This document shows positions 45,019 to 62,740 of a DNA stretch of 64,000 nucleotides, one piece after another. A program made the translations under genes and the position numbers. The stretch comes from Candidatus Hodarchaeota archaeon (GTDB taxonomy: Archaea; Asgardarchaeota; Lokiarchaeia; Sigyniarchaeales; SOKP01): the NCBI GenBank assembly GCA_048886685.1, contig JBHLKM010000002.1:263532-327531 (forward strand), in the 5' to 3' direction. The stretch's first letter is position 1. Each line of letters opens with the position of its first letter. Under the pieces are notes generated by a model. That model was not told the origin of the DNA, did not search any database, and saw only the letters and a program-made list of their open reading frames with translations.

Positions 45019-46704
45019 TTAAGTAGAGATTCTTATTTTATTTCCTAGCAAGATCTTCCTTGCTTGTTCAAAAGCATAATTATAATCAAAAACTTTTTTT
45101 CCTTTAGTATTCGATGCTTCTTTAAGGATCTCCGCCTCGATATTAGATTTTAAGCGTCCTAATGCTAATGCACCAATTCCGAAAATACTTGGGTATATTT
45201 CTTTGTAATCATCTTTTGGCTTTAAACCCTCAACACCATAAGGAGGGACAAGATTAATATCGATTATAAGCTTGTTTTGAAGTTTAATTAGTAAATCTTT
45301 TGATAAAATTTGTACAGCAGCAGCAGCTAGACTCCAAATTATATCCGCATCTTTTACTATTTCTAATTTCTTTTCATCATTTGGTGCGAAGACACCGATT
45401 ATTTCAGTATCGTTTACTCCAACTTCTTCATTTAATTCTTTTACTAGGTTTTTAATGAAATTTTCATTTGATTTTTCCCAAGTTTCAACCAAATAAGTTT
45501 TACATTTTAATTTCGTTGCTAATATTGCAGCAATTCTTCCAACAGGTCCTGCTCCAAAGATGACTATTTTTTTCCCTTTTAAATCAAACAAATCATTCTT
45601 TTTAGAAATTTCCATAGTTTTAGCGACTATTGAAGCGGCAGTAGTATGAGAACCACGAGGATCAATAATTACTGGGCATTCAAAAGGAGGTACCAACGAT
45701 TCTATTACTTTTTTAGCAATTTTTTCACCCTCTTTAACATTGGATCCACCAATAAAGAACGTGGTAGGAGCTTTCGGTTTTCTAGAAAAAATAGCATCTT
45801 GAACAAGTTTTGGGACTTGATCAGCAGTCATCCTACTAAAGGGGATGACAATATCAAAGCCAGCATCATAAGCCATATTTATATCGAAAGGAGAAGCATT
45901 ATTATCAGTATCAAAAAAATAACATATTTTTTCTAACGTTTCATTCTGTTTCACTTTAATTGGAGTTAATTCGATTATAGATTTACCAATGATAGTTTTA
46001 AATGAATTAGAACGAGGATTGTTTACAACTCTAGCTAACCGTTTGATTTTTATTTCTTCTGTTTCAATGCCTAATTCTTCTGCCAGTTGAGTGATCCCTT
46101 TGAAATGCCTAGGATCACAGAAAAAAAATGCTGTTAATTTTCCTCCTGCCATTTCCTTCGCAAATTTTAAAATGCCCATCATCATCCATGCTTCTCGAAC
46201 TTCGTATCTTATTTTATTCTCGTGAAGGTTGTATTCTTGTTGTAGGTATTCCCTCCATAAAAACATACGTTGAAACTCAAAATTATCTTTTGGAAATGTT
46301 TTTCCGTTAACCTTTATCATAGCTTTAATCGATTTTGTTAATTGTTTTATAAGTGTTCTAAGATCCTCCAAATTCGAGGAAAGATAATTTTCTGCGTTTT
46401 CTGAAATATCTACTATTTTATAAGGGATATGATTTTCTTCAAATAATGATTCTAGAGGATCATCAGGAGAAATTGTATCTTCCCAACGACTTCCTTTTTC
46501 TTCTAATGCGAAATCAGGATTGTATTTACCTATCAACTCTTTAATTAGATTGAGGTACTCTTTAGAAATCAAATGTAAATTCCATACTAAATCGTGCCTT
46601 TTCTGTGCTGATGTCTCAAACCACCAATCTATTGGAAATTCACTTTCAATCAATACTAATTTCAAACTCTTTCTCTTTAGAGGTTTTAACTCTAAAACTT
46701 CCAT
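45019..46704 (-). CDS. NAD(P)-dependent methylene-H4MPT dehydrogenase (MtdB/MtdA family) with about 255 aa of extra N-terminal domain
   Basis: DTDNNASPFDINMAYDAGFD, DAIFSR, DPRGSHTTAA, GAGPVG, DINLVPPYGVEG, GIGALALG. Confidence 0.85.
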   Translation of the reverse strand: MEVLELKPLKRKSLKLVLIESEFPIDWWFETSAQKRHDLVWNLHLISKEYLNLIKELIGKYNPDFALEEKGSRWEDTISPDDPLESLFEENHIPYKIVDISENAENYLSSNLEDLRTLIKQLTKSIKAMIKVNGKTFPKDNFEFQRMFLWREYLQQEYNLHENKIRYEVREAWMMMGILKFAKEMAGGKLTAFFFCDPRHFKGITQLAEELGIETEEIKIKRLARVVNNPRSNSFKTIIGKSIIELTPIKVKQNETLEKICYFFDTDNNASPFDINMAYDAGFDIVIPFSRMTADQVPKLVQDAIFSRKPKAPTTFFIGGSNVKEGEKIAKKVIESLVPPFECPVIIDPRGSHTTAASIVAKTMEISKKNDLFDLKGKKIVIFGAGPVGRIAAILATKLKCKTYLVETWEKSNENFIKNLVKELNEEVGVNDTEIIGVFAPNDEKKLEIVKDADIIWSLAAAAVQILSKDLLIKLQNKLIIDINLVPPYGVEGLKPKDDYKEIYPSIFGIGALALGRLKSNIEAEILKEASNTKGKKVFDYNYAFEQARKILLGNKIRIST

Positions 46705-47333
46705 TAATTACTCTCCCCCTGTTTTATAATTAAATATGGAATATTATGAATACTATAATAATCATAGACAATCGCCTCTATTTGAAGCTCTTTTAATTGT
46801 TTTATTATTTCTGGAAGAGTTATTTTATGAGCAAAATGAATAAGAAAAATTTTTTCATTTTGATAGGTCCTAACTATATCTAAGATTTTTTTAACAATCC
46901 ACTGTGGTCTTGTTTTCAATTCTAGAATATTTTTATCCTGAAAAACCTCCTTCTTTAGAACATCAATCCAAGATTTTAGATTTAATCCTTTAAAAGAATA
47001 TTTATCATCCATATTTCGATATTCCTGTAATAGTTCACTAATTTTTTCTTCATTTTTTGTTATTTCAGCATACAGACACCCATATGCATGCTCAGGCATA
47101 TCCAATAGGTAATATTCGATGTTAAAAGCATTTAAAATCCTTAATAGAGTTGAATTTTTAAAGGTTTTGAAATTTATCCCATTTATATCAACAGTAATAA
47201 ATTTAATGTTATTATTCTCTATTATTTCCTTTAAAATTTCAAGATCAGTAAGTTGAGAATCAAATCCTATATTTTCCAATAAATATATAACTATTTTTTT
47301 ATTGCTTATCGGTTTTAATTTTAATACTTCCAT
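46704..47333 (-). CDS. Hypothetical protein homologous to the N-terminal domain of the downstream Mtd fusion
   Basis: MEVLKLKP vs MEVLELKP; IEYYLLDMPEHA vs IPYKIVDISENA; RPQWIVKKIL vs REAWMMMGIL. Confidence 0.7.
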   Translation of the reverse strand: MEVLKLKPISNKKIVIYLLENIGFDSQLTDLEILKEIIENNNIKFITVDINGINFKTFKNSTLLRILNAFNIEYYLLDMPEHAYGCLYAEITKNEEKISELLQEYRNMDDKYSFKGLNLKSWIDVLKKEVFQDKNILELKTRPQWIVKKILDIVRTYQNEKIFLIHFAHKITLPEIIKQLKELQIEAIVYDYYSIHNIPYLIIKQGESN

Positions 47334-48096
47334 CTTAATTATCCACCTTTTTAAAATTATTCTTAAAATGTATACATGGAACTGTCATAACGTTATTAAA
47401 CGACCCCTTTCCGTATTTTTGAGCTATGAGATTAGTTCCAATTAGATAATAAGTTGATTAAAATTTAAATAGTTTGAAAAGAAAATTTTTCGTCATTTTG
47501 ACAAATTAAATTTTCAAAAAATTTCTTTAATAATTATTCTTTTCATATAAAAAATTGAAATTTAACCTCATTATAATAATCATACAATTTTAAAAGAGAT
47601 ATTTTAAAAATTGTTTTAGTCAAATTACTTATCAAAAAAATTTTAGTTACAGTTTAATACAATTTTTTGTTGATAGAGGTTAAAAGTTTTAGTAGAATTA
47701 CTAATGAAAGAGTATAGACAAATTTGTTAGATATTAATTAACAAATCTGTACAAATTTATAAATATTTTGTGCTTTTTAAAAATTTTGTTAAATAAAATC
47801 TATAAATTGAAAATAGAATTCTCCTTTTTGATCATTGACATACTCAATCTTACCTTTTATTCTTATTATTATAACTAAAATTCTCAATTATCTATAATAT
47901 CACTATTATAATTAAACAATAAAAATGAGGAAAAGCTCTATTAGATGCAAGGATTTTTAAATAAAAATTACCTCTTTCATAATGGGATTAGATCTTTTTA
48001 AAAAATATATTTTAAAAAAAACACAATATTGTCAAAATAATATATTTAATTCCTGAAAATATCAGGTTTTAAATTAAAAATGGGGGTGGTAAATAC

Positions 48097-48255: not shown

Positions 48256-49506
48256 ATGTCTTCTTACATTAATAATGAAATTAAGTGTAGCATTTGTAAA
48301 TATCAAAACTTAGGTGAAAATATTAAAAATGTAATTTCAATGGCAAATTATTGTTATGCTTGCAATAGATGTGTTAATGTGTGTCCACTTTCGCATTTAG
48401 ATGTATTTTTTCCGCGAACATTAGTAGGAGATTTAGTCCTCTCTTCATTCGGAGAAGTTTTAAATAATCATAATATCTGGGATTGTCTTACATGTGGTCA
48501 ATGTACAATATATTGTCCAATGAGTCAAGAGAATGTAGGAGTAAGAATACCCGAATTAATTTTGGAGTTGAGAAAGGCATCAAGAAATAATAAAATTCAA
48601 ATTAATAGAATACTTGAGAGCCAAACTCATAATGAAATCTTCCCGATAATTTCGAAAATGATGGCAAATAATCCAATAAATCCAAACAAATTAGAGTTTT
48701 TAAAGGAAAAAGGCCTAAAAACAACAGATTCAGGTGATATTGCGTATTTTGTTGGCTGCTTGCCTTTAATGGAAGAAATATTTTATAGCTTTAAAATTAA
48801 TTATAACAACATACCTATAACAATAATAAGTCTACTTAATGAAGCCAATATAGTACCAGTAGTTTTAAATGAAAAATGTTGCGGGCATGATATTTTATGG
48901 GGTGAGGGCGATATTGAAACTTTTAAAAAATTGGCCGAATATAATACTCAGCTTTACAAAGATGCTGAAGTAAAAACTGTTATAGTTGGATGTGCTGAAG
49001 GATATAGAACTTGGAAATATGATTATCCAAAAATAATAGATGGATTTGATTTCAAAGTTTTTCATTTTTCTGAATTTTTTCTAAAAGAGAAAATTCTTGA
49101 CCATTTAAAATTCCCTCGAAATCTCGAGACTAAGGTAACTTATCATGATTCTTGTCGAATGGGCCGTTTAGGCGGAAAATTATATGAAGCCCCAAGAGAA
49201 TTAATTAGACAAATTCCTGGAGTCGAATTAATTGAAATGGATAATATAAAAGATGATTCTAATTGTTGTGGCATCGCAACATTTCTAAATTGTAATGAAT
49301 ATACACGCGTTTTAAGGAAAAATCGTATCAATGAAGCAATTGATACCAGAGCAGAATATTTAATTGTCTCTTGTCCAAAATGTTTAACACATTTTAATTG
49401 TTATCTTAACGACCCTTCCTCAAATGAAGAGAAAAAAGGGTTAAGAAATAAAATAAAGGTGATCGACTTAGCAAGTTTGATTGGTAAATTGCTTCTGCTT
49501 GTTTAA
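48256..49506 (+). CDS. hdrD: HdrD-like Fe-S oxidoreductase (2x[4Fe-4S] plus two CCG domains)
   Basis: CYACNRCVNVCP, CLTCGQCTIYCP, YFVGC, EKCCG, YHDSC, NCCG, SCPKC. Confidence 0.85.
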   Translation: MSSYINNEIKCSICKYQNLGENIKNVISMANYCYACNRCVNVCPLSHLDVFFPRTLVGDLVLSSFGEVLNNHNIWDCLTCGQCTIYCPMSQENVGVRIPELILELRKASRNNKIQINRILESQTHNEIFPIISKMMANNPINPNKLEFLKEKGLKTTDSGDIAYFVGCLPLMEEIFYSFKINYNNIPITIISLLNEANIVPVVLNEKCCGHDILWGEGDIETFKKLAEYNTQLYKDAEVKTVIVGCAEGYRTWKYDYPKIIDGFDFKVFHFSEFFLKEKILDHLKFPRNLETKVTYHDSCRMGRLGGKLYEAPRELIRQIPGVELIEMDNIKDDSNCCGIATFLNCNEYTRVLRKNRINEAIDTRAEYLIVSCPKCLTHFNCYLNDPSSNEEKKGLRNKIKVIDLASLIGKLLLLV

Positions 49507-49562
49507 TTAGAGCTCAAAAATTCAAATTTATCAAATATATTTTATTTTAGGATTATTAAAAA

Positions 49563-52500
49563 ATGTTAAAATTACAGAGTAGTGTTTTAGTTATAGGGGG
49601 TGGAATTGCTGGTATACAGACATCATTAGATCTCACTAGGTTAGGATTCAAAGTTTATCTAGTTGAAATTAAACCTACTATTGGTGGGACTATGGCTCAA
49701 TTAGATAAAATATTTCCTACGCTTGATTGCAGTTTGTGTATTTTAGCTCCCAAAATGGTTGATGTATATAGAAATCCAAATATCGAGTTATTTTCTTATT
49801 CTTACATCAAAAAAATTAGAGGATCTGCTGGAAATTACACAGTAACAGTTATAAAGAAGCCAAGGTACATAAAAGAAGAGATTTGTAAAGGATGTGGAGA
49901 TTGTGTGAATGTTTGTCCAATTAAAGGAATTCCTAGCGAATTTGATACCCATTTAAAAACTCGAGAAGGTATATATATTCCTTTTCCATCATCTGTACCT
50001 CCAGTATATCTTATTGATGACAGAAATTGTTTATTTTTAAATTATCAAATATGTGGAATTTGTGCTAAAGTTTGTAAAGCTAATGCTATAGATTTTTTAC
50101 AAAAATCAGAAGAAATAACTTTGAATGTAGGAGCTATTGTTATTGCCACAGGATATAGCCAAGAAATGCCAGAAAATTATAATACTTTTGCTGGTTATTC
50201 TCCCAATGTTTTGTCTAGTATGCAATTTGAACGTATATTATCCGCAAACGGACCTACTGGTGGTCAAATCATAAAATTAGATGATAGAAAACCTCCTCAT
50301 TCAATTGCTTTTATACAATGTGTAGGTTCTCGGGATGTTCATCATCCTGCATGTAAAAAATATTGCTCTGCAATATGTTGTATGAATTCAGCTAAAGAAG
50401 CAATTGTGGTTAAGGAACATGATCTAAATATTGAATGCTATATTATTAATACAGAAATAAGAGCAAAAGGTAAGAATTTTTATGAATTTATTGAAAGATG
50501 TAAGAGTGAATATAATGTTAAATATATTAATGGTCGTGTTTCATATATCAAAGAGGATTTAGATAATGGGAAATTAAAATTATACTATGAAGATATTGAC
50601 AAAGGAACAGTTGGAACTTTTAAAGTGGATATGGCAATATTAGCTAGTGCTTTATCCCCAACTCCTTCTTACTATAAACTTTTAAGACAATTTAACGTAG
50701 GTTGTAATGATTTAGGATATATTCGTGAAAAAGATATAATCTTACTTGAAAAAAAGAATGTATTTGTAACTGGTTATTCTAGAAAACCAAATGATATTCA
50801 AATGGCAGTTGCTGAAGGTTCTGCATGTGCTGCTAAAATTAGTGAAAAATTATGTTCTGTTAGATTTCAAAATATAAAAAAAATAAGTTATCCTTCAGAA
50901 ATACCACTAACACCCGAGGATGACCCACGTGTAGGTATTTTTATTTGTCGATGTGGTACTAATATTGGGGGAATTGTTAATGTTCCTGAAGTAGTAAATT
51001 ATGTTTCTAAATTGCCTTATGTTGTTCATGTTGAAGAAAATATGTATTCATGTAGCTCTGATTCCCAAGAACGAATTAAAGAATTAATTATAAAATATAA
51101 TCTTAATAAATTTATAGTTGCTTCATGTACTCCTCGAACTCATGAACAACTTTTTAAGAATACTTTAAGAGAGGCTGGATTAAATCCATTTTTATTTGAA
51201 TTAGTCAATATAAGAAATCAAGATTCTTGGGTTCATCAAAATGAACCTGAAAAGGCAACCAAAAAAGCATGTGATTTAATTAGGATGTATTTAGGAAAGG
51301 TAATTAATTCAAAACCATTAGAAACTATTAATGTTAAAGTTGAAAAATCATCTCTAATAATCGGTGGTGGAATAACAGGAATAACTGCTGCACATAATTT
51401 AGCAAACCAAGGATTTGAAGTTTATCTCGTAGAAAAGGATTCTTTACTTGGGGGTGTTGCACTCGAATTTATAGATTTATATTATATACCTATTACGAAA
51501 AATGAAATTTTACAAAAAATTAATGATTTGAGAAATAATTCTGATGTTCATATTATATTAAACTCAGATATAGTTGATATTCAAGGTTATGTTGGTAATT
51601 ATCAGATTAAAGTTAAGAATATTCAAGATAATTCAGAAGATAAAACATTTAAAGTGGGGACAATAATAGTAGCCACGGGAACCAGGCAAATAAGGACAAA
51701 TAGATGGTTAGATTTATCAGAAAGATATCCCAAACGTGTATTAACCCAAAAAGAATTAACTGCGATTAAAGATGCAGATATTCCTAGATTTAAAGATGCT
51801 ACAATAATACTATGTGTAGATCAAAGAAGAAACGAATTTAATGAAGGAGATAATATAAAAACCTATTGTTCAAATATTTGTTGTGGCGTAGCATTAAAGA
51901 ATATCGAAAAATTATTAAATAACAACCCTAATGCTCATATTCATGTTTTATATAGAGAATTTCAATTTTCAGATTTAAATGCTGAACACTTGTGGCGAAG
52001 CCTTCGACAAAAGGTTACATATGAAAAATATCGTTCAATCGATAATATCAAAATCATTGAGGAAAACGGTAGATTTCATATAAAATACAAAAACATTGGC
52101 GCTAGAACAGATATAGAATATAATACAGATTTAATAATATTAGCAACCCCAAAAGTCCCTGCTGATGGAACTGAACAATTAGCAAAATTGTTAAAAGTTC
52201 CAACAAATAAAGATGGCTTTTTTTTAGAAGCTGATGCAAAACTTAGGCCAATTGACTTTGCAACGGAAGGAATTTTCTTATGTGGGGGAGCTCATTGGCC
52301 AAAATGGATTGGTGAAAGCATTACTCAAGCATATGGTGCAGCTGGCAGAGCAACGATATTAATGGTTAAAGGAGAAATAGAAGCTGAATGTATAACAGCC
52401 GGAATCAATGAGGAAAAGTGCATTGGATGCGGTAGATGTGCCGAAATTTGCATTTATAATGCCATCGAATTGTATGACACTATTAAACAAATGGGTTTAT

Positions 52501-52673
52501 ACACTACTAATATAAAGAAAGCACGAGTAATTAAAGCTGTTTGTAAAGGTTGTGGAGCATGTGTTGTAGAATGTCCAGTTAATGCTATTGATCAAAATCA
52601 CTTTAGCAAGATTCAAATTAATAATATGATTGATTTATTACCAGGAATAGAATTACCGCATTATATTATTTAA
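49563..52673 (+). CDS. hdrA: Large two-module HdrA, all-Cys
   Basis: GGGIAG, FPTLDCSLCILAP, QCVGSR, CSAICC, CRCGTNIG, second GGGITG, C-terminal ferredoxin motifs. Confidence 0.95.
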   Translation: MLKLQSSVLVIGGGIAGIQTSLDLTRLGFKVYLVEIKPTIGGTMAQLDKIFPTLDCSLCILAPKMVDVYRNPNIELFSYSYIKKIRGSAGNYTVTVIKKPRYIKEEICKGCGDCVNVCPIKGIPSEFDTHLKTREGIYIPFPSSVPPVYLIDDRNCLFLNYQICGICAKVCKANAIDFLQKSEEITLNVGAIVIATGYSQEMPENYNTFAGYSPNVLSSMQFERILSANGPTGGQIIKLDDRKPPHSIAFIQCVGSRDVHHPACKKYCSAICCMNSAKEAIVVKEHDLNIECYIINTEIRAKGKNFYEFIERCKSEYNVKYINGRVSYIKEDLDNGKLKLYYEDIDKGTVGTFKVDMAILASALSPTPSYYKLLRQFNVGCNDLGYIREKDIILLEKKNVFVTGYSRKPNDIQMAVAEGSACAAKISEKLCSVRFQNIKKISYPSEIPLTPEDDPRVGIFICRCGTNIGGIVNVPEVVNYVSKLPYVVHVEENMYSCSSDSQERIKELIIKYNLNKFIVASCTPRTHEQLFKNTLREAGLNPFLFELVNIRNQDSWVHQNEPEKATKKACDLIRMYLGKVINSKPLETINVKVEKSSLIIGGGITGITAAHNLANQGFEVYLVEKDSLLGGVALEFIDLYYIPITKNEILQKINDLRNNSDVHIILNSDIVDIQGYVGNYQIKVKNIQDNSEDKTFKVGTIIVATGTRQIRTNRWLDLSERYPKRVLTQKELTAIKDADIPRFKDATIILCVDQRRNEFNEGDNIKTYCSNICCGVALKNIEKLLNNNPNAHIHVLYREFQFSDLNAEHLWRSLRQKVTYEKYRSIDNIKIIEENGRFHIKYKNIGARTDIEYNTDLIILATPKVPADGTEQLAKLLKVPTNKDGFFLEADAKLRPIDFATEGIFLCGGAHWPKWIGESITQAYGAAGRATILMVKGEIEAECITAGINEEKCIGCGRCAEICIYNAIELYDTIKQMGLYTTNIKKARVIKAVCKGCGACVVECPVNAIDQNHFSKIQINNMIDLLPGIELPHYII

Positions 52674-52690
52674 ATAAAGGTGAGTACAGC

Positions 52691-53155
52691 TTGTTAAAAA
52701 CTAAAAAAAAAATAGTTAAGGAATTTGAGCCAACTATTTTAGTTTTTTGTTGTAACTGGTGTAGTTATGCTGGAGCGGATTTAGCAGGAGTGTCAAGATT
52801 TCAATACCCCCCAAACATTAGGATTGTCAGAATTATGTGTTCAAGCAGAGTTGAGCCTATATTTATTTTAAGAGCTTTTGACAATGGAATAGATGGTGTA
52901 TTAATTATTGGATGTCATAAGGGTGATTGTCATTATATACATGGATTTGAATATACTCTAATCAGAATGGAACATTTAAAGAATTTATTAAAAATAATTG
53001 GAATTGAGGAAGGTAGATTTAGGTTACACTCAATTTCAGCAAGTGAGGGGAAACAATTTTCAGAATTAATTATAGAATTTACAGATAAAATTAAAGAGTT
53101 AGGGGAATTAAAAATCCCCAAAAAATTTGGACTAATGGAATTTAAATGTAATTAA
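52691..53155 (+). CDS. mvhD: MvhD, all-Cys form
   Basis: FCCNWCSYAGADLAG, IMCSSRV, GCHKGDCHY. Confidence 0.95.
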   Translation: MLKTKKKIVKEFEPTILVFCCNWCSYAGADLAGVSRFQYPPNIRIVRIMCSSRVEPIFILRAFDNGIDGVLIIGCHKGDCHYIHGFEYTLIRMEHLKNLLKIIGIEEGRFRLHSISASEGKQFSELIIEFTDKIKELGELKIPKKFGLMEFKCN

Positions 53156-53163
53156 ATAAAAAT

Positions 53164-54291
53164 TTGAGGATATATATGACAGAATTAAACTCAAAAAAAT
53201 ATTTCGATATTAACATAAAAACTTTTAAAGACCTTGATAATGAAGTTATTAAAACTGATAAATGTTGTAGTTGTGGTGCATGTATAGCTTATTGTGAAAG
53301 TCAGAATTTTAATGTTATTGAGATGGCGGGATATATTCCGAGATTTAAATCAGAAAAAAATGCCTATAATTGTACTGAATGTGGTATCTGCTATTATATA
53401 TGTCCTCAAACATTATCATTATTAAAAGAATTAGAAGATATTCACAGAATAGAAGATAAACTTGGGCATATTATTAAAATTCTCGCAGCTAAAACATCTA
53501 ACGCTACGCTAAAGAAAGTTGGGCAAGATGGGGGTATAGTTTCAACAATATTAACCTATTTATTTGATAAACATAAAATTGATGCCGCCATTGTTTCCGA
53601 ATTTGATAAAAACCTTAAACCAATTCCAAAAATTATATTTGATAAAGAAGATCTGTTGAATTCGGCAGGTACACGTTATTCCATATCTTCTCAAATTATT
53701 CCTTTAAAGGATTTATATCATATTTCAGAAGAAATTCTTATGAAAAAAAGAATCTTTGATATCGATCAACTCCGTATGGGATTCGTAGGAACACCATGTC
53801 AATGTAGAGCAATTAGTAAAATGCAATTTTTACATGTTAAACCAGCTCATATTATAAAATATGTAATAAGTCTTTTTTGTTTTGAAAATTTTGATTATAA
53901 TAAATTATATGATATTTTAAGAAAAGAAACAAATTTAGACCCCAATAATATTAAAAAAGCATGGATAAAGAAGAATTTTTTTATTGCTACTAAGAACAAT
54001 GAGGAATTCGAAGTAAATATTAAAATCCTAAATCCTGCTGTAAGAAAACATTGCCTTGAATGTAATGAATTTACTGGTCGATTTTCAGATATTAGCATTG
54101 GATCATCTGGTGCACCAAAAGAATATTCAATGATAATAACTAGAACAGAAGAGGGGCAGAAAATCATTAAATCCATGCTTTCTTATGGATTAATTGAACA
54201 ATTTATTGCACCAGCTAGCCAAAATGGGGAATGGATAAATAAAAAACTTGAATGGTATAAAAAATTAATTTCTCTTAAGGCAAATAATTAA
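53164..54291 (+). CDS. frhB: FrhB/FdhB-family F420-binding subunit
   Basis: CCSCGACIAYC, GQDGGIVSTIL, AGTRY, GTPCQ, LFCFENF, DISIGSSG. Confidence 0.9.
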   Translation: MRIYMTELNSKKYFDINIKTFKDLDNEVIKTDKCCSCGACIAYCESQNFNVIEMAGYIPRFKSEKNAYNCTECGICYYICPQTLSLLKELEDIHRIEDKLGHIIKILAAKTSNATLKKVGQDGGIVSTILTYLFDKHKIDAAIVSEFDKNLKPIPKIIFDKEDLLNSAGTRYSISSQIIPLKDLYHISEEILMKKRIFDIDQLRMGFVGTPCQCRAISKMQFLHVKPAHIIKYVISLFCFENFDYNKLYDILRKETNLDPNNIKKAWIKKNFFIATKNNEEFEVNIKILNPAVRKHCLECNEFTGRFSDISIGSSGAPKEYSMIITRTEEGQKIIKSMLSYGLIEQFIAPASQNGEWINKKLEWYKKLISLKANN

Positions 54292-54357: not shown

Positions 54358-54428
54358 TCTGAAAACCCACACTATGGGTTAGTTCCCCCTCAACTATAGT
54401 TTTTTTGAAAGGATCATCCTTTTTCAGA
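54358..54428 (-). promoter_or_regulatory. Candidate eukaryote-type SECIS element of the Sec-hdrA mRNA
   Basis: Minus strand: UCUGAAAA-AGG-AUGA-UCCUUUCAA-AAAAACUAUAG-UUGAGGGG-GA-ACUAA-CCCAUAGUGUGGG-UUUUCAGA. This gives an 8-bp basal helix, an AUGA/GA core, an upper helix with one bulge, an A-rich apical loop and a side hairpin. Folded by eye. Confidence 0.55.
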
Positions 54429-56465
54429 TAATATTTTATGAGGAGCTAGTGCTTCAATCTTTTTCCAAATAAGTTCAATAGATTCGATATACTGTTCCTT
54501 ATATTCAAGTTCAGTACTACAGATTCCTTTCATTTCTTCAATAATTTGTTTGTCTCTATAATATTTGAGATCAATTGCACGAGCTGGACATGAAGATACA
54601 CAAACCCCGCAACCTTTACACTTTAAATCATCTACTTCCGCAATATCTTCTCCATTGACTGTGATTGCTTTATTAACACAGAGCTTCTCACATCTATGAC
54701 AACCCATGCACAGATTTTCATCTATTTCAGCAATAATTAATTCTTGAATTATTGAATCTTTAGAAATTAATGTTGAAACCTTACTTGCAGCGGCTAACGC
54801 TGTTGATACTGAATAAGGGATATTTTTGGGTCCGGCGGCACATCCACATATATAAATGCCCATATTATTTGTCTCTTGAGGTTTTAAGCATCCATGAACT
54901 TCTGTCAAAAATCCGTTCATATCTTTACTTAAACCCAAAATCTCAATTATTTCAGCTGTGCCTTTAGAAGGGACCATGCCTGTTGATAAAACAACTAAAT
55001 CGGTATTCATTATAATGAAATCATTTGTTAAAGTTGAAGCAGCAGTAATCCTAATCTTTTTTGTTGCAGGATCTTCTCGTATATCTCCCACTTTTCCCCG
55101 AATCATCATTATGCCTGCTTCTCTCGCTTTTCTATAATATTCCTCATTTCCTTTATCCCATGCCCGTATATCTATATAAAAAATAGTAATCTCCATATTA
55201 GGATATTCTTGTTTTAACAATTGAGCATTTTTAAGAGCAACACTGCAGCATACTACTGAACAATATGGATTACCTTTTAAAGTTCTTGAACCAACACATT
55301 GAATCATAGCTACTGTTTTAGGGATCTTTCCATCAGAAATCCTATATATATGACCTCCTGTAGGTCCAACTGGACTTAACATTCGTTCTAACTCTATTTG
55401 TGTAATTACATTGGGATAAATCCCATATTTATATTCATTATTTTTCATAATTGGGTATTCATCCCATCCTGTGGCAATAATTACTGCTCCAACTTTTAAT
55501 GTAATATCTTTTGGGGTTTGTTCAAATTCAATAGCTTCAGCGGGGCAAATTCTTTGACAATTTTTACATTCTATTCATACACTCCTATCAATTAGAGCTA
55601 CTTTTGGTACTGATTGGGGAAAAGGTATGTAAATTGCTTTTCGTTCGCCAATACCTCTGTTAAATTCGTTAGGTACTTCTATTGGTCATTTCGTTGTACA
55701 TAATTCACAACCAGTACACTTGTTTTCATTAATATATCGAGGTTTTTTATGTATTTTAACATTATAATTTCCAGGTATGCCGCTGAATTTACTAATTTCG
55801 CTATAGGTAAATAATGTTATATTTGGATGTTTTGAGACACTTACCATAATAGGTGCTAGAACTCATATCGCACAATCATCAGTGGGATAAATTCGATCTA
55901 ATTTTGCCATTTTTCCACCAATAGTGGCTTCTTTTTCGACTAAATACACATTTATTCCTTGATTTGCTAAATCTAATGCAGCATTCATCCCTGCAATACC
56001 AGCGCCGATAATTAATACAGATTTTTCTACTGATACTCTTTTATTAGGTATGATTTCTAATTCTCTAGCACGATTTATCCCTGCTTGCACTAACCTTATA
56101 GCTTTTTCAGTAATTCTTTTCTTATTTCCCGAGTGAGCAAATGAGCATTGTTCGCGAAGATTAACCATTTGGAAATAATATGGGTTTAAACCCGCTTCAG
56201 CTAGCACTGCTCGATAAGTAGATTCATGAATTTTAGGTGTACAAGCTGCCACAACAACACGATTTAAGTCTAAATCTAAAATATCGTTTTTGATAATATT
56301 TTGTCCTGGATTGCTGCAAGTAAAATTGTTCACTCTAGCAACAATAATACCAGGGAGTGCCTCAACATAATCTCTAATAAGCTCGCAATCGATACTGTTA
56401 CTAATATTAACTCCTCATCTACAGATATAGAATCCAATTCTAACATTGGTCTGTTTTTCAGACAT
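54414..56465 (-). CDS. hdrA: Selenocysteine-containing HdrA, 683 aa, four in-frame UGA (codons 17, 201, 260, 297)
   Basis: Single frame from ATG 56465 (SD AAGGT) with no TAA/TAG. TGA at 56417 (ICR-U-GVNI), 55865 (DDCAI-U-VLAP), 55688 ([12 protein letters not shown]) and 55577 ([12 protein letters not shown]); each aligns to Cys in the in-window HdrA paralogues. Confidence 0.92.
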
Positions 56466-56905
56466 TTAATCTACCTTTTTCAACTATCACCTAATATTTT
56501 TCATGATAAAATTTCAAAATTCTGAGTAAAGAAAAACAAAAATTTGCTAAAAGGTAATTATAATTACTTCTGATGATATTTTCCGATTAAATAATGAGCT
56601 AAGAGAAATTTAAAAAATTTGATAAGACAAATTTTGATTATTTTGATAAATTTATTTATCAATCCTTTTATTAAAATTATGGATCTGATCCTTATCTGAT
56701 CTTTTTCGTATCAATATATTATCACTTTTCAAATGTATGATGGAATTCTTAATTATTGGTCTTAATGATCCTTGATCATAATAAGGATGAAAAGGATCAC
56801 ATTTATATATTATGACAATTATTTTTATCATAGAGATCATTTATTTTATTAAAATAGTCAAAAGAATTTTTAAAATGATTAATCTTAAATTGGTGATTTT
56901 TAATA

Positions 56906-58063
56906 ATGAAAATAAAAAACTTTCAGGATTTAATTAAAGAGGTTCATGAGCCTGGCATCTGTCAACAATGTGGGGGCTGCATAAGTTTTTGTAATTCAAT
57001 TGAAAATGAAGTAATTGGTTTTAAAGATCTAAATTCGCCTCCTGAATATTTAAATAAGGAAAAATGTCTTGAATGTGGAATTTGCTATTTAATTTGTCCA
57101 CAAACGCATACTCTAGACGAAGATCTTAATATTACATACAAATTTTCAGGCTTTTCGTCAATGCCATTAGGTTTTCTTGAAAATGTTTACTCTTGTCAGG
57201 CTGTGGATAATGATTTTCTAAAATATGGAACAGACGGTGGGGTTGTAAACTCAATAATAAATTATTTAATAGAAAAAAGAATAATTGATGGCGCAATAGT
57301 TGCAAAAACAAAATCACCATTCTCTAGAGAAGCTATAATAGCTAAAAGTAAAGAAGATTTAATCAAAGCTTCTGGTGTCAAGTTAGATATATCAGCACAA
57401 TTAGATAGCGTCCAGAAATTTCATACATATACAAATTCATTACCTAAATTAAGGAGTGTCAAATTCAAGAAATTAGCACTGGTAGGGACCCCATGTCAAA
57501 TTTATACAATTAGATGTATGCAAAATTTAGGCATCATTCCATCAGAGAATATAGAAATTTGTTTAGGATTATTTTGTTTCGAGAATTTCTTCTTTGACGA
57601 AATAAAAGTTAGGCAATTCGAAGAAGAATTTAATATTAAATTTAAAGATATTGAAAAAATAAACATTAAGGCAGATCTAATTATTAAATTAAAAGATGAA
57701 GTAGCTCGTCGCAAAATAATCCATATACCATTTGAAAGATTAACTGAATACATCCGTCCAGCTTGCACCGTGTGTAATGATTTCACGAATATTTATGCCG
57801 ATGTTTCTTTTGGGGGATTGGGTTCCCCGGATAAATTTACGACTGTAATTATTCGTACTAAAAAAGGAAAAGATATAATTAATATGGCGATAAAAGCAGA
57901 TGTAATTAAACGTTTAAAATTAAATGTAATTGACAAAAAAGAAATGAAAGAAAAAATTACACAATTCTCTCAATTAAAATTAATACGAGCAGAAAAAAAT
58001 ATGAGAGATATTTTGATAACAAGGAGATCCTCATTATCAACCTCAGCAATTAATGAAGAATAA
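56906..58063 (+). CDS. frhB: FrhB/FdhB-family F420-binding subunit
   Basis: CQQCGGCISFC, GTDGGVVNSII, GTPCQ, GLFCFENF, ADVSFGGLG. Confidence 0.9.
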   Translation: MKIKNFQDLIKEVHEPGICQQCGGCISFCNSIENEVIGFKDLNSPPEYLNKEKCLECGICYLICPQTHTLDEDLNITYKFSGFSSMPLGFLENVYSCQAVDNDFLKYGTDGGVVNSIINYLIEKRIIDGAIVAKTKSPFSREAIIAKSKEDLIKASGVKLDISAQLDSVQKFHTYTNSLPKLRSVKFKKLALVGTPCQIYTIRCMQNLGIIPSENIEICLGLFCFENFFFDEIKVRQFEEEFNIKFKDIEKINIKADLIIKLKDEVARRKIIHIPFERLTEYIRPACTVCNDFTNIYADVSFGGLGSPDKFTTVIIRTKKGKDIINMAIKADVIKRLKLNVIDKKEMKEKITQFSQLKLIRAEKNMRDILITRRSSLSTSAINEE

Positions 58064-58132
58064 TTATTAAATCCCATATTAGAATAATTAATTTATTTAT
58101 CTGAAATTGGGAAAAAAGAGGTAGACTAAATT

Positions 58133-60682
58133 ATGGATATATACACAATATTATCTCATCCATTCAGAAGAAAAATCTTATTTCTTCTTGAAAAGGAGGG
58201 CTATATTCCCTATACAGATTTAATGGAAAAACTTGGTTTAGAAACAACAGGACAACTAAATTTTCATCTGAAGAAGATCGGTTCATTAATAAATAAAGAC
58301 AAAAAATCATATTTTCTTACTGAAGATGGTAAACGCGTACTTAAAATTCTCAATCTCAACAAAAGAATTTTATCAGGAGAAAATATTGATGAGTATTTAG
58401 ACTCTAGGGGAAGCGAGATAAGCAGGATTGGAGTAATCATTTGTTATTGCAATACAGAAATTTCAAAGGTAATAAATATAACTGCCCTTGAAAATTATAT
58501 AAATAAGTTAAGAAAGGTAGTTTCGGTAAAGGTCTTTGAAAACTTATGTCAGCAAAAAAATTTTAATAGAATTGGTAAATGGGTTAAAGATAATTTTTTG
58601 AATAAAATTGTGATAGCTGCATGTTCTCCAAGAACACATCAACATCTTTTTGAACGAATTTTTGAGAAAACTATTGATCGAGCTAATTTAGAAATAGCTA
58701 ATATTAGGGAACAATGTTGTTGGGTCCATCAATCTAAAATATATCAAACAGATCTCTCATTTTTATTAGAAAAAACTAAATTATTAATTGAAGCAGCTGT
58801 TGAACGGGTAAGTCTTCAAAAAAAAGTAAAAATTAAGAGAGTTGAAGTAGAAAAGAGTTGTGCAATTTTAGGTGGGGGAATTGCTGGTATAACACTTGCC
58901 TTAAATTTAGCTCGAGCTGGAATTGAAGTATATCTCATTGAAAAATCACCTACCTTGGGAGGTAAGGTAGCCAGATGGCACCGAATCCATAATATGGGTG
59001 ATTGTTCAATATGTCTCATTTCAGAATTGATAGGTGAATTAGTAAATGAGAAAAAAATAAAGATTTATACTAATACTGAAATTGAAAATGTATCAGGTGA
59101 AGTTGGAAATTTCACAATTAAATTGATTAAAAAACCTCGATATATTAATGTGAAAAAATGTACTGGATGTAAACAATGTTTAGAAGTTTGTAGTATAGAA
59201 AAGACAAATCAATATGAATTTGGTTTAACTAATCGAAAAATCATATATATCCCTTTTATTCATTCGTATCCCTATGTTCCTTTGATTGATGAAGAAGATA
59301 TAAAAAATTGTCTTAATTGTAGAATTTGTGAACGTGTATGTGAAAATAAAGCAATAGATTTGACTCAAAAAGAAGAAAAAATCGAAATCAAAGTTGGAAC
59401 TAAAGTAATTGCGATTGGTTCTGACTTTTACGAGGATTTAGAGGATTATCATTATAATTCCAAAAAAAATATAATAACATCAATGGAATTTGAACGAATA
59501 TTATCTTCTGATGGCATCACTGAAGGAAAGCTTTTAACGTTATCAGATAAAAAACCAATAGAATCAATTTCTATCATTCAAGAGGTTGGTCCATCAAAAT
59601 ATCTTGCTGATTACTCAGAAATCTTAGCACAAAAATATATTGAGGATATTAAAATAAAAAATCCTGATTGCGAAGTTAATGTCTTTTATGATTTAAGTAA
59701 ATTAAAAGATAAGGATGAGATTTTATTAAGATCATCTAATCCAAGATTTATATATGCAGACAAAATTACAATTGAGACCAATAAAGATCTAAATTACATT
59801 GTTGCTGATAATATTAAGTTTCCAAGTGATTTAATTGTATTAAATCTAAAATTTATCCCTAATAAAGATTTAAAAAACCTTCGAAAATATATGGATTTTA
59901 CATTAGATGATAATGGATTTATGAGTGAGGAAACATTAGCATCTGGAATTTATGGTGTTGGGACGATTTTTGGTCCATTAAATTATAATTCTACAATTTC
60001 AACAGCTAACAATACTGCATTAAAAATTATTTCATTGCTTTCTAAAGAATATTTAATTGCAGAGTTTACAGGGATAGAAATTGATGAAAATAAATGTGGT
60101 TTGTGTGGTTTGTGTTCTAAAATTTGTCCTTATAATGCTATTACAACAGAATCAGACAAAATAAGTATAGACAAATTTAAGTGTAAAGGCTGTGGTACAT
60201 GCGCTAGTGTGTGTCCAACAAATGCAATAGATTTAAACTTAGACTCTTCTGAGAAGATTTTAAAGACAATTGAAATTTTTTCGAAATTCAGAGCACAACC
60301 AAAAATTCTTGCCTTCTGTTGCGCATCTTGCGGATATGCTGCAGCTGATGATGCTGGTCTTAAGAAGGTCTCCTATAATCCAAATACTTTTATCGTTCGG
60401 GTTCCATGTACAGGACGTATTGATACAAATTTTATTATTAAATCATTTGAGCTCGGATTCGATGGAGTAATGATAATTGGCTGTAGACAAGATGCATGCA
60501 GATATATTGACGGAATAGAAAAAGTAAAGAAAAAAATTATGTTATTAAAGAATATCATACTGCCGAAATATAAAGATCGAATAGTCCTTGAACATTTAAA
60601 TGCTGTAGAGGGTACCAAATTTGCTGAAATCTCAAATAAATTATATAACAAATTAGTCGAGGAGATTAAATTTGAAACCTAG
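58133..60682 (+). CDS. Fusion: ArsR-like winged HTH, HdrA-like flavoprotein and MvhD
   Basis: ILSHPFRRKIL...TTGQLNFHLKKI...YFLTEDG; ACSPRTH, NIREQCCWVH, GGGIAG, DCSIC, four ferredoxin motifs; QCVGSR/CSxxCC replaced by QEVGPSK; C-terminal FCCASCGYAAADDAG, PCTGR, GCRQDACRY. Confidence 0.88.
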   Translation: MDIYTILSHPFRRKILFLLEKEGYIPYTDLMEKLGLETTGQLNFHLKKIGSLINKDKKSYFLTEDGKRVLKILNLNKRILSGENIDEYLDSRGSEISRIGVIICYCNTEISKVINITALENYINKLRKVVSVKVFENLCQQKNFNRIGKWVKDNFLNKIVIAACSPRTHQHLFERIFEKTIDRANLEIANIREQCCWVHQSKIYQTDLSFLLEKTKLLIEAAVERVSLQKKVKIKRVEVEKSCAILGGGIAGITLALNLARAGIEVYLIEKSPTLGGKVARWHRIHNMGDCSICLISELIGELVNEKKIKIYTNTEIENVSGEVGNFTIKLIKKPRYINVKKCTGCKQCLEVCSIEKTNQYEFGLTNRKIIYIPFIHSYPYVPLIDEEDIKNCLNCRICERVCENKAIDLTQKEEKIEIKVGTKVIAIGSDFYEDLEDYHYNSKKNIITSMEFERILSSDGITEGKLLTLSDKKPIESISIIQEVGPSKYLADYSEILAQKYIEDIKIKNPDCEVNVFYDLSKLKDKDEILLRSSNPRFIYADKITIETNKDLNYIVADNIKFPSDLIVLNLKFIPNKDLKNLRKYMDFTLDDNGFMSEETLASGIYGVGTIFGPLNYNSTISTANNTALKIISLLSKEYLIAEFTGIEIDENKCGLCGLCSKICPYNAITTESDKISIDKFKCKGCGTCASVCPTNAIDLNLDSSEKILKTIEIFSKFRAQPKILAFCCASCGYAAADDAGLKKVSYNPNTFIVRVPCTGRIDTNFIIKSFELGFDGVMIIGCRQDACRYIDGIEKVKKKIMLLKNIILPKYKDRIVLEHLNAVEGTKFAEISNKLYNKLVEEIKFET

Positions 60683-61430
60683 ATTTATAATAATTTCTCT
60701 AACTTCGTGTAGTGGTTGCATCTCAACTATTATGTCTTTAGATATTTTTCCACAATTCCTTAAGAGAACTATAATAACTTATTTTCCCTTTATTTCAGAT
60801 TTAAAAGACATTGAAGAATGTGATATTGCTTTAGTAGAAGGTTGTATTTCTGAAGAATCTCAAATTATATTCCTTCGAGAAGTTAGAAGATATGCCAAAA
60901 AAGTCTATGCCTTAGGAACATGTTCTAGTTTTGGAGGGATTTTAAGTCTTTCAAATTCAAAAATAGTAGGACCAATCTCTAATTATATTGAGATTGAGGG
61001 TATTATTCCTGGTTGCCCACCTCCTTCTAAACTACTTGGAAACAGTCTAATCAGATTGGTTGAAAACAAAGATATAATATTATCTGAAAAAAATATGTGT
61101 GCCAATTGCCCATCAAGGGGAAACATGGAAATAAATTCTCATATAAATATCTCTAAGATTAATCCAGATCCAGAAGAGATTGATCTTAATAAGGAAAATT
61201 CTGAATGTTTTTTAAAGAAAGGTATTTTATGTTTAGGACCAGTAACCCGTGATGGATGTGAATTTAATTGTATAAAAATGGGGCTTCCGTGTGAGGGATG
61301 TATAGGGCCGGTATCAAAAGATTTCACTTCAAACATTATTAATTTTTTGAGTTTGATAGAATTATCTCAGGAGCTAAAAGAATATACAGGGATTTTTTAT
61401 CGATTTTCAAAACCAAAATTGAAAGGGTGA
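60672..61430 (+). CDS. mvhG: Group 3 (Mvh-type) [NiFe] hydrogenase small subunit
   Basis: SCSGC, VEG, GTCSSFGGI, PGCPP, CFLKKGILCLGPVT, PCEGCIGP. Confidence 0.88.
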   Translation: MKPRFIIISLTSCSGCISTIMSLDIFPQFLKRTIITYFPFISDLKDIEECDIALVEGCISEESQIIFLREVRRYAKKVYALGTCSSFGGILSLSNSKIVGPISNYIEIEGIIPGCPPPSKLLGNSLIRLVENKDIILSEKNMCANCPSRGNMEINSHINISKINPDPEEIDLNKENSECFLKKGILCLGPVTRDGCEFNCIKMGLPCEGCIGPVSKDFTSNIINFLSLIELSQELKEYTGIFYRFSKPKLKG

Positions 61431-62740
61431 AAACTTTGTTAAAAGTTATTGATGTTTGTAGACGTGTTGAAGGTCATGGAGATGTAAAAATTTTAATTCA
61501 AAATGATGAAATTTCATTGGTGAATTTTGAATTTGGAATATATCGAGAATTTGAAAAAATTTTAATCGGAAAAAGACTACTAGATCTGCCAAAAATAGTA
61601 TCTCGAATATGTGGATTATGTTATACCTCTCAAACAATCGCAAGTTGTAAAGCAATAGAAGATATTTATAATATCAATGTATTAGAACAAACTATTCTCT
61701 TGAGACGCCTTTTAATGAGTGCTGAATTAATTAAATCCCACTCTATGAATTTTTTTTTCCAAACTTTACCCGATCTTTTAGCAATTTTTGGTCTTAGCAA
61801 AATAACATTTTCTCCTTACGAGATAATTAATTATAATCCTCAATTAACAAATAATTTCTATGAATTAATCAGAATTGGAAATGAACTAAATAACTTATAT
61901 GGAGGTAGATCTGTCCATTTGATTTCGCCTATTCCAGGAGGCATTATTTATTCTCCTTCTCGAAAAAAAAATATCTTAGCTCGAAAATGTTTTCAAAAAG
62001 CTTTAGTCAGTTTAGAATGGATTATAGAAAAATTTATTGAATTATTTTCTAATCAAGCTCCTCCAAAAGAATATAACCTTCCAAACTTTATTTCTCTTGG
62101 TTTAACAAACCATGGAAATTATGATCGATATTTAGGTACCTTAAGAATTAAAGGAAACAATAAAAACTTAATAGAATTTGAAAAACACAATTACTCTTCT
62201 TATTTTGGAAAAGAGCTTAATTTACGTGGAATTGATTTTTATTTCGAAAATAAAAAAAATGTAATAGTAGGTCCTTTTTCTCGTTATAATATTGTCGAAA
62301 ATTATGGATTTGATGAATTTAATACTTATATTGAGTATTTCAATAAATCATGGAAAAACAATATACTACTTACAAATTTTATTAAATTACTAGAAATGTA
62401 TATCGAATCTTATCAAGGATTACAAATTTTAGATGATTCATCTTTAACTAAAAGAGAAAAACTTCCTTCTCTGAATTCAGTAAAAAATTTGGATGGAATA
62501 GGCGTCATTGAGGCTCCCAGAGGAGTTTTAATCCATCATTATCACCTTAATAAAAGTAATTATGTTGATCGAGTAAATCTTTTCGTTGCTACTGAGTTTA
62601 ATATTTCACTTATTAACGAGATGATTACAGAATATGCCCAAGAATTATTTGAAAGAACAGGAGATATAAATTTAGTTAAAAAGAAAATTCAGATGATTAT
62701 TAGGACATTTGACCCTTGTATCTCATGTGCAACTCACTAA
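61427..62740 (+). CDS. mvhA: Group 3 (Mvh-type) [NiFe] hydrogenase large subunit without C-terminal extension
   Basis: RVEGHG, L1 SRICGLC, EAPRG, L2 DPCISCATH followed immediately by TAA. Confidence 0.88.
   Translation: MKTLLKVIDVCRRVEGHGDVKILIQNDEISLVNFEFGIYREFEKILIGKRLLDLPKIVSRICGLCYTSQTIASCKAIEDIYNINVLEQTILLRRLLMSAELIKSHSMNFFFQTLPDLLAIFGLSKITFSPYEIINYNPQLTNNFYELIRIGNELNNLYGGRSVHLISPIPGGIIYSPSRKKNILARKCFQKALVSLEWIIEKFIELFSNQAPPKEYNLPNFISLGLTNHGNYDRYLGTLRIKGNNKNLIEFEKHNYSSYFGKELNLRGIDFYFENKKNVIVGPFSRYNIVENYGFDEFNTYIEYFNKSWKNNILLTNFIKLLEMYIESYQGLQILDDSSLTKREKLPSLNSVKNLDGIGVIEAPRGVLIHHYHLNKSNYVDRVNLFVATEFNISLINEMITEYAQELFERTGDINLVKKKIQMIIRTFDPCISCATH

Follow-up and report, generated by a model that had tools for sequence, protein, structure and literature searches.

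A winged-helix HdrA-MvhD fusion encoded with a divergent [NiFe] hydrogenase as a candidate H2/redox-responsive transcription factor in Lokiarchaeia

Exchange of H2 with partner organisms lies at the heart of Asgard physiology and of syntrophy models for the origin of eukaryotes, and a direct link from H2 to transcription would therefore make H2 sensing in Asgard archaea testable. Here we ask whether such a link is encoded in a Lokiarchaeia (Promethearchaeota) genome, in which an 849-residue protein combining a domain of the winged helix-turn-helix type (wHTH) with HdrA and MvhD is followed by the genes for the small and large subunits of a [NiFe] hydrogenase. Within the window, by which we mean the whole stretch of 64,000 nucleotides analysed, the four open reading frames proposed in an initial annotation were confirmed at their coordinates:

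56906..58063, + strand, frhB-like gene (2x[4Fe-4S] plus FrhB N/C), lineage-specific and heading the operon here
58133-60682, + strand, fusion gene wHTH-HdrA-MvhD, 849 aa
60672..61430, + strand, [NiFe]-hydrogenase small subunit, MvhG-like, overlapping the fusion gene by 11 nt
61427..62740, + strand, [NiFe]-hydrogenase large subunit, divergent group 3, with Gln69 and without the C-terminal peptide

Of the overlaps claimed between the last three genes, that of the fusion with the small subunit holds, while that of mvhG with mvhA depends on a GTG start (the database call for the large subunit is 434 aa) and is replaced in many relatives by a gap of 5-7 nt. The fusion is neither an assembly artefact nor confined to one genome, an objection that the annotation itself had raised: residues 1-130 are common to 164 full-size proteins, and a GTDB search returned 71 loci carrying the fusion. 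A search of sequencing runs gave no RNA run with the locus, and DNA contigs from a single study, which may be the source of this sequence, were not taken as independent evidence. The conserved unit, found in several Asgard lineages, consists of three genes, namely the fusion, the small and the large subunit. The frhB-like gene lies directly 5' of the fusion in only 18 of 57 relatives and is a subclade trait; its candidacy as a core subunit was rejected on this count, and the F420/FrhB input that had been part of the original claim is not supported. The parts of the fusion protein are as follows:

58133..58372, + strand, winged-helix DNA-binding domain (DUF7347), residues 1-80
58421..60277, + strand, HdrA part, residues 97-715, with N-terminal cluster, FAD, and inserted and C-terminal ferredoxins
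59564..59641, + strand, HA4 ligand region without Cys, residues 478-503
60296..60655, + strand, MvhD [2Fe-2S] domain, residues 722-841 (FlpD/MvhD profile match at residues 725-841)

The N-terminal domain matches the DUF7347 profile at residues 2-71 (E 8e-10, above the cut-off), a family unmentioned in the literature searched. Its model (pLDDT 93.7) contains a recognition helix and a wing, and the best structural matches are ArsR/HxlR/MarR-type regulators with Z of about 10-11; by VIA these include 1ub9 (Z 10.9, rmsd 3.8, 83 aligned) and CadC (Z 10.7, rmsd 2.4, 80 aligned), and there is a profile match to 1y0u of A. fulgidus (E 2e-5). Mean pairwise identity amounts to 0.81 for the domain and 0.90 for the recognition helix, and dN/dS is, at about 0.07, the lowest among all parts of the proteins. 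An unconserved recognition helix, named beforehand as a possible refutation, is thus the opposite of what is found. A complex prediction with two wHTH copies scored 0.31 (mark 0.42) and was given no weight.

A palindrome, TGAYAA-N6-TTRTCA, is present in 53 of 57 orthologous promoters, as scored with a matrix built without the sequence of this window. In a matrix scan of the genome the top three sites (24.3, 21.3 and 19.2 bits) all fell into this gene cluster:

56802..56809, + strand, predicted archaeal TATA box, 3 bp 5' of the proximal operator
56813..56830, proximal operator, exact palindrome match, placed between the TATA box and the expected transcription start, 24.3 bits, best site of the genome
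56644..56661, distal operator, exact palindrome match, 21.3 bits
56620..56637, weak tandem partner of the distal operator at a distance of 24 bp, with one good half-site here and a conserved flank
47499..47516, third operator, 1 mismatch, 19.2 bits, third-best PWM site of the genome, conserved in relatives

Exact copies number three in the genome, two of them within the 440-bp promoter of this operon. The offset between TATA box and operator is identical in 31 of 42 promoters, and the 139 sites in 1.15 Mb of related loci lie without exception between genes, where they follow the fusion, o209-mtd and hdrD. The same site stands 5' of fusions that are only 36-57% identical, whereas it is weak or not found in the promoters of families f4, f5 and f28 and in some of f31. 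Since the genome-wide count of sites of at least 18 bits (4, against a permuted-matrix mean of 0.7 and maximum of 4) does not by itself exceed the controls, the operator argument rests on position; likewise, a class-wide pattern count could not tell fusion-bearing from fusion-less genomes and is uninformative because chance copies of the palindrome occur. Five fusion-less genomes of the same genus contain no site in the 15-17 kb around the syntenic mtd gene, although joint loss of site and fusion in one deletion could also explain this. An apparent operator without fusion in genome G254 was discarded because the contig stops just past frhB, and further exact palindromes in f19 and f21 genomes lie inside open reading frames and were treated as chance. 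A sigma-70 promoter scan, not relevant to archaea, stayed below chance. As regards a failure to bind DNA, also named in advance as refuting, a candidate operator does occur at a repressor position in the fusion's own promoter. Taken with the conservation of the wHTH, this makes us confident that the fusion complex would prove to be a DNA-binding autoregulator.

The operators are surrounded by further redox genes:

45019..46704, - strand, mtd-like gene (methylene-H4MPT dehydrogenase-like) with Mpt_N and NAD(P) Rossmann domains and, at the N-terminus, a TraB/GumN-like one
46704..47333, - strand, o209, a 209-aa gene, stand-alone copy of the Mtd N-terminal domain without HTH, predicted regulon member
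48256..54291, + strand, operon of hdrD-like, double hdrA, mvhD and frhB-like genes, probable regulon member
54414..56465, - strand, selenocysteine HdrA, divergent from the fusion operon with a common operator region

The third operator lies 5' of both the o209-mtd operon, by about 165 bp, and hdrD, by about 740 bp. Through rearrangements the palindrome moves with the mtd-like operon, whose mtd-like gene is mostly divergent from the fusion in relatives and a predicted regulon member, and with hdrD; as the operator accompanies hdrD on relocation, the hdrD operon is probably part of the regulon as well. Two other fusions of redox modules with HTH domains, FlpD-HTH-FrhB and FrhB-TrmB, are encoded within 17 kb, and neither tracks the palindrome.

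In the body of the fusion the GxGxxG FAD motif, the N-terminal cluster cysteines, the DCxxC pair, HA3, both ferredoxin domains and the MvhD cysteines are kept, bearing out the retention originally described and including the features expected of an MvhAGD-HdrABC member. The structure model has a soluble HdrA fold (Foldseek E 1e-55); a search of the ESM Atlas returned generic HdrA-FlpD clusters only. The reported loss of the cluster ligands in the flavin domain is equally borne out, as all four HA4 cysteines are missing and the stretch (mean pairwise identity 0.52) holds no Cys in 44, one in 12 and two in 5 of 61 Lokiarchaeia orthologs. It is by way of HA4 that the high-potential electron reaches HdrB (PMC12350162, PMC13580544). 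The hdrC and hdrB genes are absent from the fusion operon and sit on contig C4 in a canonical vhuG-vhuA-vhuU(Sec)-hdrCB-hyp locus, which also includes hyp genes.

The hydrogenase retains its catalytic residues: 11 Cys of the small subunit are conserved at 95-100%, and in the large subunit the four Ni cysteines (C62, C65, C431, C434), the proton-transfer residue Glu15 and Arg365 of the active site are invariant. The large subunit stops at the His of the last motif, followed by TAA, and has no C-terminal tail; as a mark of a sensor this is unspecific, for about 21 representatives of the His type, nearly all outside the clade, are likewise tail-less. Its Gln69 aligns with Gln67 of HoxC and is found in all 57 readable Lokiarchaeia orthologs and in none of the best 150 representatives outside the clade, with one clade member (P0242) carrying His. 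Gln in place of His is a trait of regulatory hydrogenases, but the same source states that it 'seems not to be involved in H2 sensing' (PMC5665086), which we counted against a sensor. The phylogenetic check places the large subunit in a separate 45-row clade (SH-aLRT 99) apart from the 3b and 3c/3d references, in trees that hold no group 3a and no methanogen MvhA references. It scores 153 bits against the VhuA HMM (cut-off 800) and shows no 3c branching, no His and no cleavable tail, so that the label 'Mvh-type' overstated the kinship; it is also far from HoxC in both trees and does not belong to group 2b. Two probable group 3b sequences appeared as sister group in the first tree, a placement that the larger tree did not retain. 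The HdrA and large-subunit trees are congruent. The sensor-like traits, in the form of the Gln shared with HoxC and the separate canonical Vhu/hyp/hdrCB locus, are stronger than first claimed.

We propose, with a probability of roughly 60%, that the fusion, small and large subunits form a soluble complex acting as an H2/redox-responsive transcription factor. The complex very probably switches genes by hydrogen or redox state, and we lean towards H2, read via the hydrogenase, as the signal. Of the regulator originally claimed, the DNA-binding part gains from the fold and the operator and the sensor-like part from the shared Gln and the separate Vhu locus; F420 input is not supported. By homology with MvhAGD-HdrA, H2 would be split at the NiFe site and electrons would pass from the small-subunit clusters via the MvhD [2Fe-2S] cluster to the FAD of HdrA and the clusters that remain, and an HdrA dimer would offer two wHTH domains to the palindrome. 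In Lokiarchaeia, where the HA4 exit to HdrBC is gone, the flavin would presumably have no outlet for the high-potential electron, and the redox state of the flavin would report H2 or the low-potential carrier pool. A redox-driven swing of the mobile arm of HdrA, with the wHTH tethered by a flexible linker, may then alter operator binding. Given the proximal operator between TATA box and start site, the bound form would repress; the targets would be the complex's own operon, the mtd-like operon and the nearby hdrA/hdrD modules. As to direction, our guess, at little better than even odds, is that the operator is released when the complex is reduced, which would turn on electron-disposal and C1 genes as H2 builds up.

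The strongest competing explanation, although an unlikely one, is a metabolic hydrogenase interconverting H2 and ferredoxin or another carrier, perhaps with Sec-HdrA or FrhB, whose regulation would be real but come second to flux. It would autoregulate like the trigger enzyme PutA. Every catalytic residue is in place, HA4 is the one cluster missing, and with the low-potential branch (HA3 and both ferredoxin domains) intact, catalytic H2:ferredoxin turnover may occur; moreover, an HA4-intact Sec-HdrA shares the promoter here, and ancestral-type members (families f19, f28 and f31 and locus L190) retain HA4, His and a short tail. However, HA4 loss, Gln and tail loss accumulate along the Lokiarchaeia branch, evolution is more rapid in the large subunit (dN/dS 0.23) than in the fusion (0.07-0.16), neither hdrB/C nor another acceptor gene is kept as a neighbour in relatives, and a canonical Vhu-Hdr locus is present elsewhere. 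The ancestral-type members also carry the HTH, which therefore came first; as these HA4- and His-intact relatives share HTH and operator, the regulator role is independent of the loss of bifurcation. What may have followed is, at slightly less than even odds, a dedicated H2 sensor in Lokiarchaeia: a slow [NiFe] hydrogenase wired without a kinase to a flavoprotein repressor, derived stepwise (HA4, then His to Gln, then the tail) from an autoregulated bifurcating enzyme and setting C1 and electron-disposal genes by syntrophic H2 removal.

Less probable still is a redox transcription factor that answers to something other than H2 (ferredoxin, F420, NAD(P)H, disulfide state, or Ni/Fe-S cofactor loading), with the hydrogenase only poising or resetting it. 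The fusion of the same wHTH to an Mtd-like protein in one genome (locus L158), the further redox-module/HTH fusions in the window, the NAD(P)-type Mtd-like gene in the predicted regulon and the co-encoded frhB would fit such a factor. Yet the genes invariably linked to the fusion, and evolving together with it, are those of the hydrogenase and not frhB or mtd, and the active-site residues are invariant.

We consider it very unlikely that the palindrome belongs to another factor and that the wHTH of the fusion binds DNA non-specifically or mediates protein contacts. FlpD-HTH-FrhB and FrhB-TrmB do lie nearby and some lineages with the fusion have a weak palindrome, but a search of 15 fusion genomes for an FrhB-TrmB ortholog found none in 12, and the fusion-less G213 has one, the HTH of FlpD-HTH-FrhB occurs in four fusion-less genomes and was not found in f19, f31, G126, G119 and G122, o209 is not an HTH protein, and the site still accompanies the fusion where large-subunit identity is down to 25%.

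The gene trio itself is known. In Helarchaeota the same three orthologous genes (Hel_GB_A contig NODE_1033, our locus L051) were presented as a possible or putative membrane energy-transfer complex (Seitz et al., 2019, PMC6478937 Fig. 5; Zhao & Biddle, 2021, PMC9723726), with a large subunit called divergent, Asgard-specific group 3b and common to Lokiarchaeota. Such a membrane-associated complex with a vestigial N-terminal domain is the least probable reading, since the transmembrane motifs given for the three orthologs in that figure find no support in the hydropathy of the proteins here (hydrophobicity peaks at the FAD-binding helix and at the Cys motif of the small subunit, and reaches at most 1.16 in the large subunit), the model folds as a soluble HdrA, constraint is strongest on the wHTH and no membrane subunit is a conserved neighbour in relatives. 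Neither paper mentions HTH, operator, HA4 loss or Gln; in Seitz et al. (2019), 'helix' appears nowhere in the main text and 'HTH', 'winged' and 'ArsR' nowhere in the supplements. The annotation knew of no described archaeal system of this kind; the trio had been published with a different interpretation, and the HTH, the operator and the regulator reading are not described in the literature searched. This literature, mostly open-access, describes no archaeal H2-sensing [NiFe] hydrogenase and no DNA-binding hydrogenase complex, and the main text of an archaeal fusion survey (PMC11237513) gives HdrA-MvhD but no HTH-HdrA fusions.

With MvhAGD-HdrABC (PDB 5ODC, 8RVU, 9SW2) the proteins encoded here share the HdrA fold, MvhD, small and large subunits, FAD and most clusters; they differ in the N-terminal wHTH, the lost HA4, an operon without hdrB/C, and a tail-less large subunit with Gln outside the 3c/3d clade. 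HoxBC-HoxJ-HoxA of Cupriavidus necator (group 2b; HupUV-HupT-HupR) has in common the Gln (67 versus 69), the missing C-terminal peptide and probably the control of H2-metabolism genes, but the conserved unit here includes no histidine kinase or response regulator, and its output is a wHTH on the flavoprotein subunit. Given the group 3 ancestry, the Gln and tail loss are convergent. Like the trigger enzymes PutA and archaeal RbkR (PMC5397151), the fusion combines an enzyme with an N-terminal DNA-binding domain, palindromic and often tandem operators, and predicted control of its own pathway genes; unlike these, it belongs to a multi-subunit Fe-S/flavin/NiFe complex for which an electron or H2, in place of proline or FMN, is the proposed ligand.

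If the proposal is correct, a domain of 90 aa and an oligo of 18 bp would suffice to test H2 sensing, operator and regulon being named, and genome annotation would be affected, as the large subunit has so far been counted as metabolic 'group 3b' or assigned to a membrane energy complex. Members ranging from HA4-intact to HA4-less would in addition offer a natural test of the role of HA4 in flavin bifurcation. The neighbouring Sec-HdrA contains four in-frame UGA codons at Cys positions 17, 201, 260 and 297; multi-Sec HdrA of Loki is already known (PMC4989117).

Re-reading the ORFs of the window placed the four operon genes where the initial annotation had them, namely an frhB-like gene (56906-58063), the wHTH-HdrA-MvhD fusion (58133-60682) and genes for a small (60672-61430) and a large (61427-62740) hydrogenase subunit. 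In the 849-residue fusion, a DUF7347 winged helix (aa 2-71) is followed by an HdrA body (aa 97-715), and an MvhD domain (aa 722-841) comes last. Its predicted model matches HdrA structures, with low confidence in the linker (aa 75-96), and structure comparison of the modelled DUF7347 domain returned a complete wHTH like those of ArsR, HxlR and MarR regulators. The features listed initially as retained (FAD motif, ferredoxin domains, MvhD ligands) are conserved, as are the ligands of the N-terminal cluster and the DCxxC pair, and the reported ligand loss in the flavin domain is borne out: the four cysteines of HA4, the cluster at the exit towards HdrBC, are not conserved. The Glu and Lys adjoining the flavin, which are important for bifurcation, are retained. 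The wHTH is the most conserved part of the protein and is under selection; its dN/dS estimates are crude and come from pooled pairs.

The fusion occurs in several Asgard lineages, and its N-terminus is common to 164 full-size proteins. About 89 of 132 genomes in the family of the window's genome carry the domain on a frame of ~850 aa; outside it, the fusion occurs in Helarchaeales, Jordarchaeia/Freyarchaeia, three more Asgard families and one further genome, and in 0 of the 14 genomes of family f3. Across 71 GTDB loci, genes for the small and the large subunit come after the fusion wherever downstream sequence suffices, except at locus L065, whose fetched flank stops about 180 bp past the fusion stop codon. 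The frhB-led four-gene layout holds in the window but is not general, as only 18 of 57 relatives have frhB immediately before the fusion. In the hydrogenase phylogeny, every large subunit linked to a fusion falls in a single clade (SH-aLRT 99), apart from the group 3b and 3c/3d references, so that the label Mvh-type is only loosely right. This single clade, together with the same branching in the HdrA tree, marks fusion, small and large subunit as an old, co-inherited three-gene module. In one genome (G277, a single contig; loci L119 and L163) the subunit genes lie apart from a C-terminally broken fusion gene, and the system is probably decaying. A large-subunit remnant (aa 135-207; L182:6614-6832) beside mtd, in a genome without the system, shows loss by deletion. 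In one genome of family f31 the DUF7347 wHTH is joined to an Mtd-like protein in place of HdrA (L158:4501-6477), and no operator was found upstream of that gene.

Searching 58 upstream regions de novo for dyads returned the palindrome TGAYAA-N6-TTRTCA. A matrix built without the window scored in 53 of 57 relatives and found two sites in the window, which, with one further site, are the three best in the genome:

56644-56661, distal predicted operator, matrix site
56813-56830, proximal predicted operator, matrix site
47499, third predicted site, top-three matrix score, upstream of the o209-mtd operon (a 209-aa stand-alone Mtd N-terminal domain and an Mtd-like protein)

Exact copies number three in the 4.4-Mb genome, two of them in the 440-bp gap before the operon, against four for the reversed control, and strong sites genome-wide are not above permuted controls in number; the evidence for the palindrome is the position of its sites, not their number. 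In related loci, 139 of 139 sites are intergenic when checked with our own ORF test, and they travel with the fusion, o209-mtd and hdrD; 36 of the 44 o209 promoters reach at least 15 bits. A TATA box precedes the start of the proximal site by 3 bp in 31 of 42 promoters, a placement that would be that of a repressor. The palindrome also stands upstream of fusions only 36-57% identical, though in some lineages it is weak or absent. Five genomes of the same genus that lack the fusion have the syntenic mtd gene and no site in 15-17 kb; one deletion could be enough to explain this joint loss. Judged from sequence, the wHTH of the fusion very probably binds the palindrome.

The large subunit shows no variation at the four metal-binding cysteines, the proton-transfer Glu or the active-site Arg; taken together with the retained cluster cysteines of the small subunit and the hyp genes found in the genome, these residues make maturation and activity of the hydrogenase plausible. 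The large subunit ends on the His of its final motif, in agreement with its description as unprocessed. The absent C-terminal tail, initially read as a sensor sign, is indeed a trait of sensor hydrogenases (PMC8229454), though not specific to them. Residue 69 is Gln and aligns with Gln67 of the Cupriavidus necator sensor HoxC, where HoxG, HoxH, HofG and VhuA of the window's genome have His; it is fixed among genome-derived Lokiarchaeia orthologs, the single His exception being from a metagenome. Gln at this position is described as characteristic of regulatory hydrogenases, but seemingly unneeded for sensing (PMC5665086). The genome also holds a separate canonical vhu-hdrCB-hyp locus:

G000 C4:94000-106000 (L072), hypF, hypD, hypE / vhuG (434 aa, long), split vhuA, Sec-vhuU, hdrC, hdrB, hypC

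Another long vhuG-like gene, which has no accompanying large subunit, is found at C10:154597-155961.

Families f19, f31 and f28 and locus L190 combine the wHTH with four HA4 cysteines, the His and a short tail. In Jordarchaeia/Freyarchaeia HA4 is lost and the His kept; in Lokiarchaeia HA4 is lost and Gln present, and the family of the window's genome has also lost the tail. HA4-intact forms are the first branches on the large-subunit and HdrA trees, both quick trees with an outgroup or midpoint root. The predicted DNA binding is older than the losses of HA4, His and tail, and the series reads as an autoregulated enzyme that became a more dedicated sensor. The L190 member (L190:3393-8083, GCA_975853055.1) is very distant, with HA4 intact and two strong palindromes, and is followed by antiporter-like membrane subunit genes.

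A real, conserved module is well supported: a hydrogenase that binds DNA, for which an operator and a small regulon are predicted. In its most likely reading (probability roughly 0.6), H2 would determine how reduced the flavin and clusters of HdrA are in a soluble complex of fusion, small and large subunit; this redox state would govern how two wHTH domains bind the palindrome, where the complex would repress the operon that encodes it, as well as the mtd-like operon and nearby hdr modules. We infer that the complex forms, that redox state is coupled to binding, and in which direction the switch works. The alternative of a metabolic enzyme, for which autoregulation is secondary, appears unlikely; the high-potential electron travels from FAD by way of HA4 to reach HdrB (PMC12350162, PMC13580544), and with this path lost, canonical bifurcation to heterodisulfide by the window's complex is unlikely. 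A redox signal other than H2 is a still weaker candidate; H2 is probably the signal. That the palindrome belongs to another factor is very improbable; neither of the HTH fusions nearby fits as its binder, nor does o209. Least probable of all is a membrane energy complex: the trio in Helarchaeota was shown as a possible membrane energy-transfer complex (Seitz et al., 2019, PMC6478937; the contig name there is that of our Helarchaeota locus L051), but hydropathy of the window's proteins gave no convincing transmembrane helix.

The large subunit has also been named divergent group 3b (Zhao and Biddle, 2021, PMC9723726); an HTH or an operator is named in the text of neither paper. The initial remark that no described archaeal system of this kind was known stands for the regulatory role, which we did not find in the searched literature, but not for the genes, which were already published. 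In its way of working we liken the module, which is not a member of canonical Mvh-Hdr, to the trigger enzymes PutA and RbkR (PMC5397151) and to HoxBC sensors, yet it lies outside their group 2b. Our verdict on its kind is a trigger enzyme; that it is a kinase-free H2 sensor we suggest tentatively, at slightly under even odds.

Other redox genes lie nearby:

41415-43286 (-), FlpD-like + HTH + FrhB fusion, divergent from the next
43486-44922 (+), FrhB + TrmB fusion
54414-56465 (-), selenocysteine HdrA, with UGA in frame at four Cys positions

A SECIS-like hairpin (z -2.1) overlaps the stop of this HdrA; multi-Sec Loki HdrA is already known (PMC4989117). The two divergent fusions, which have paralogs elsewhere in the genome, do not track the operator and are candidate F420-sensing regulators. 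The genome encodes at least 15 HdrA-like and about a dozen FrhB-like genes.
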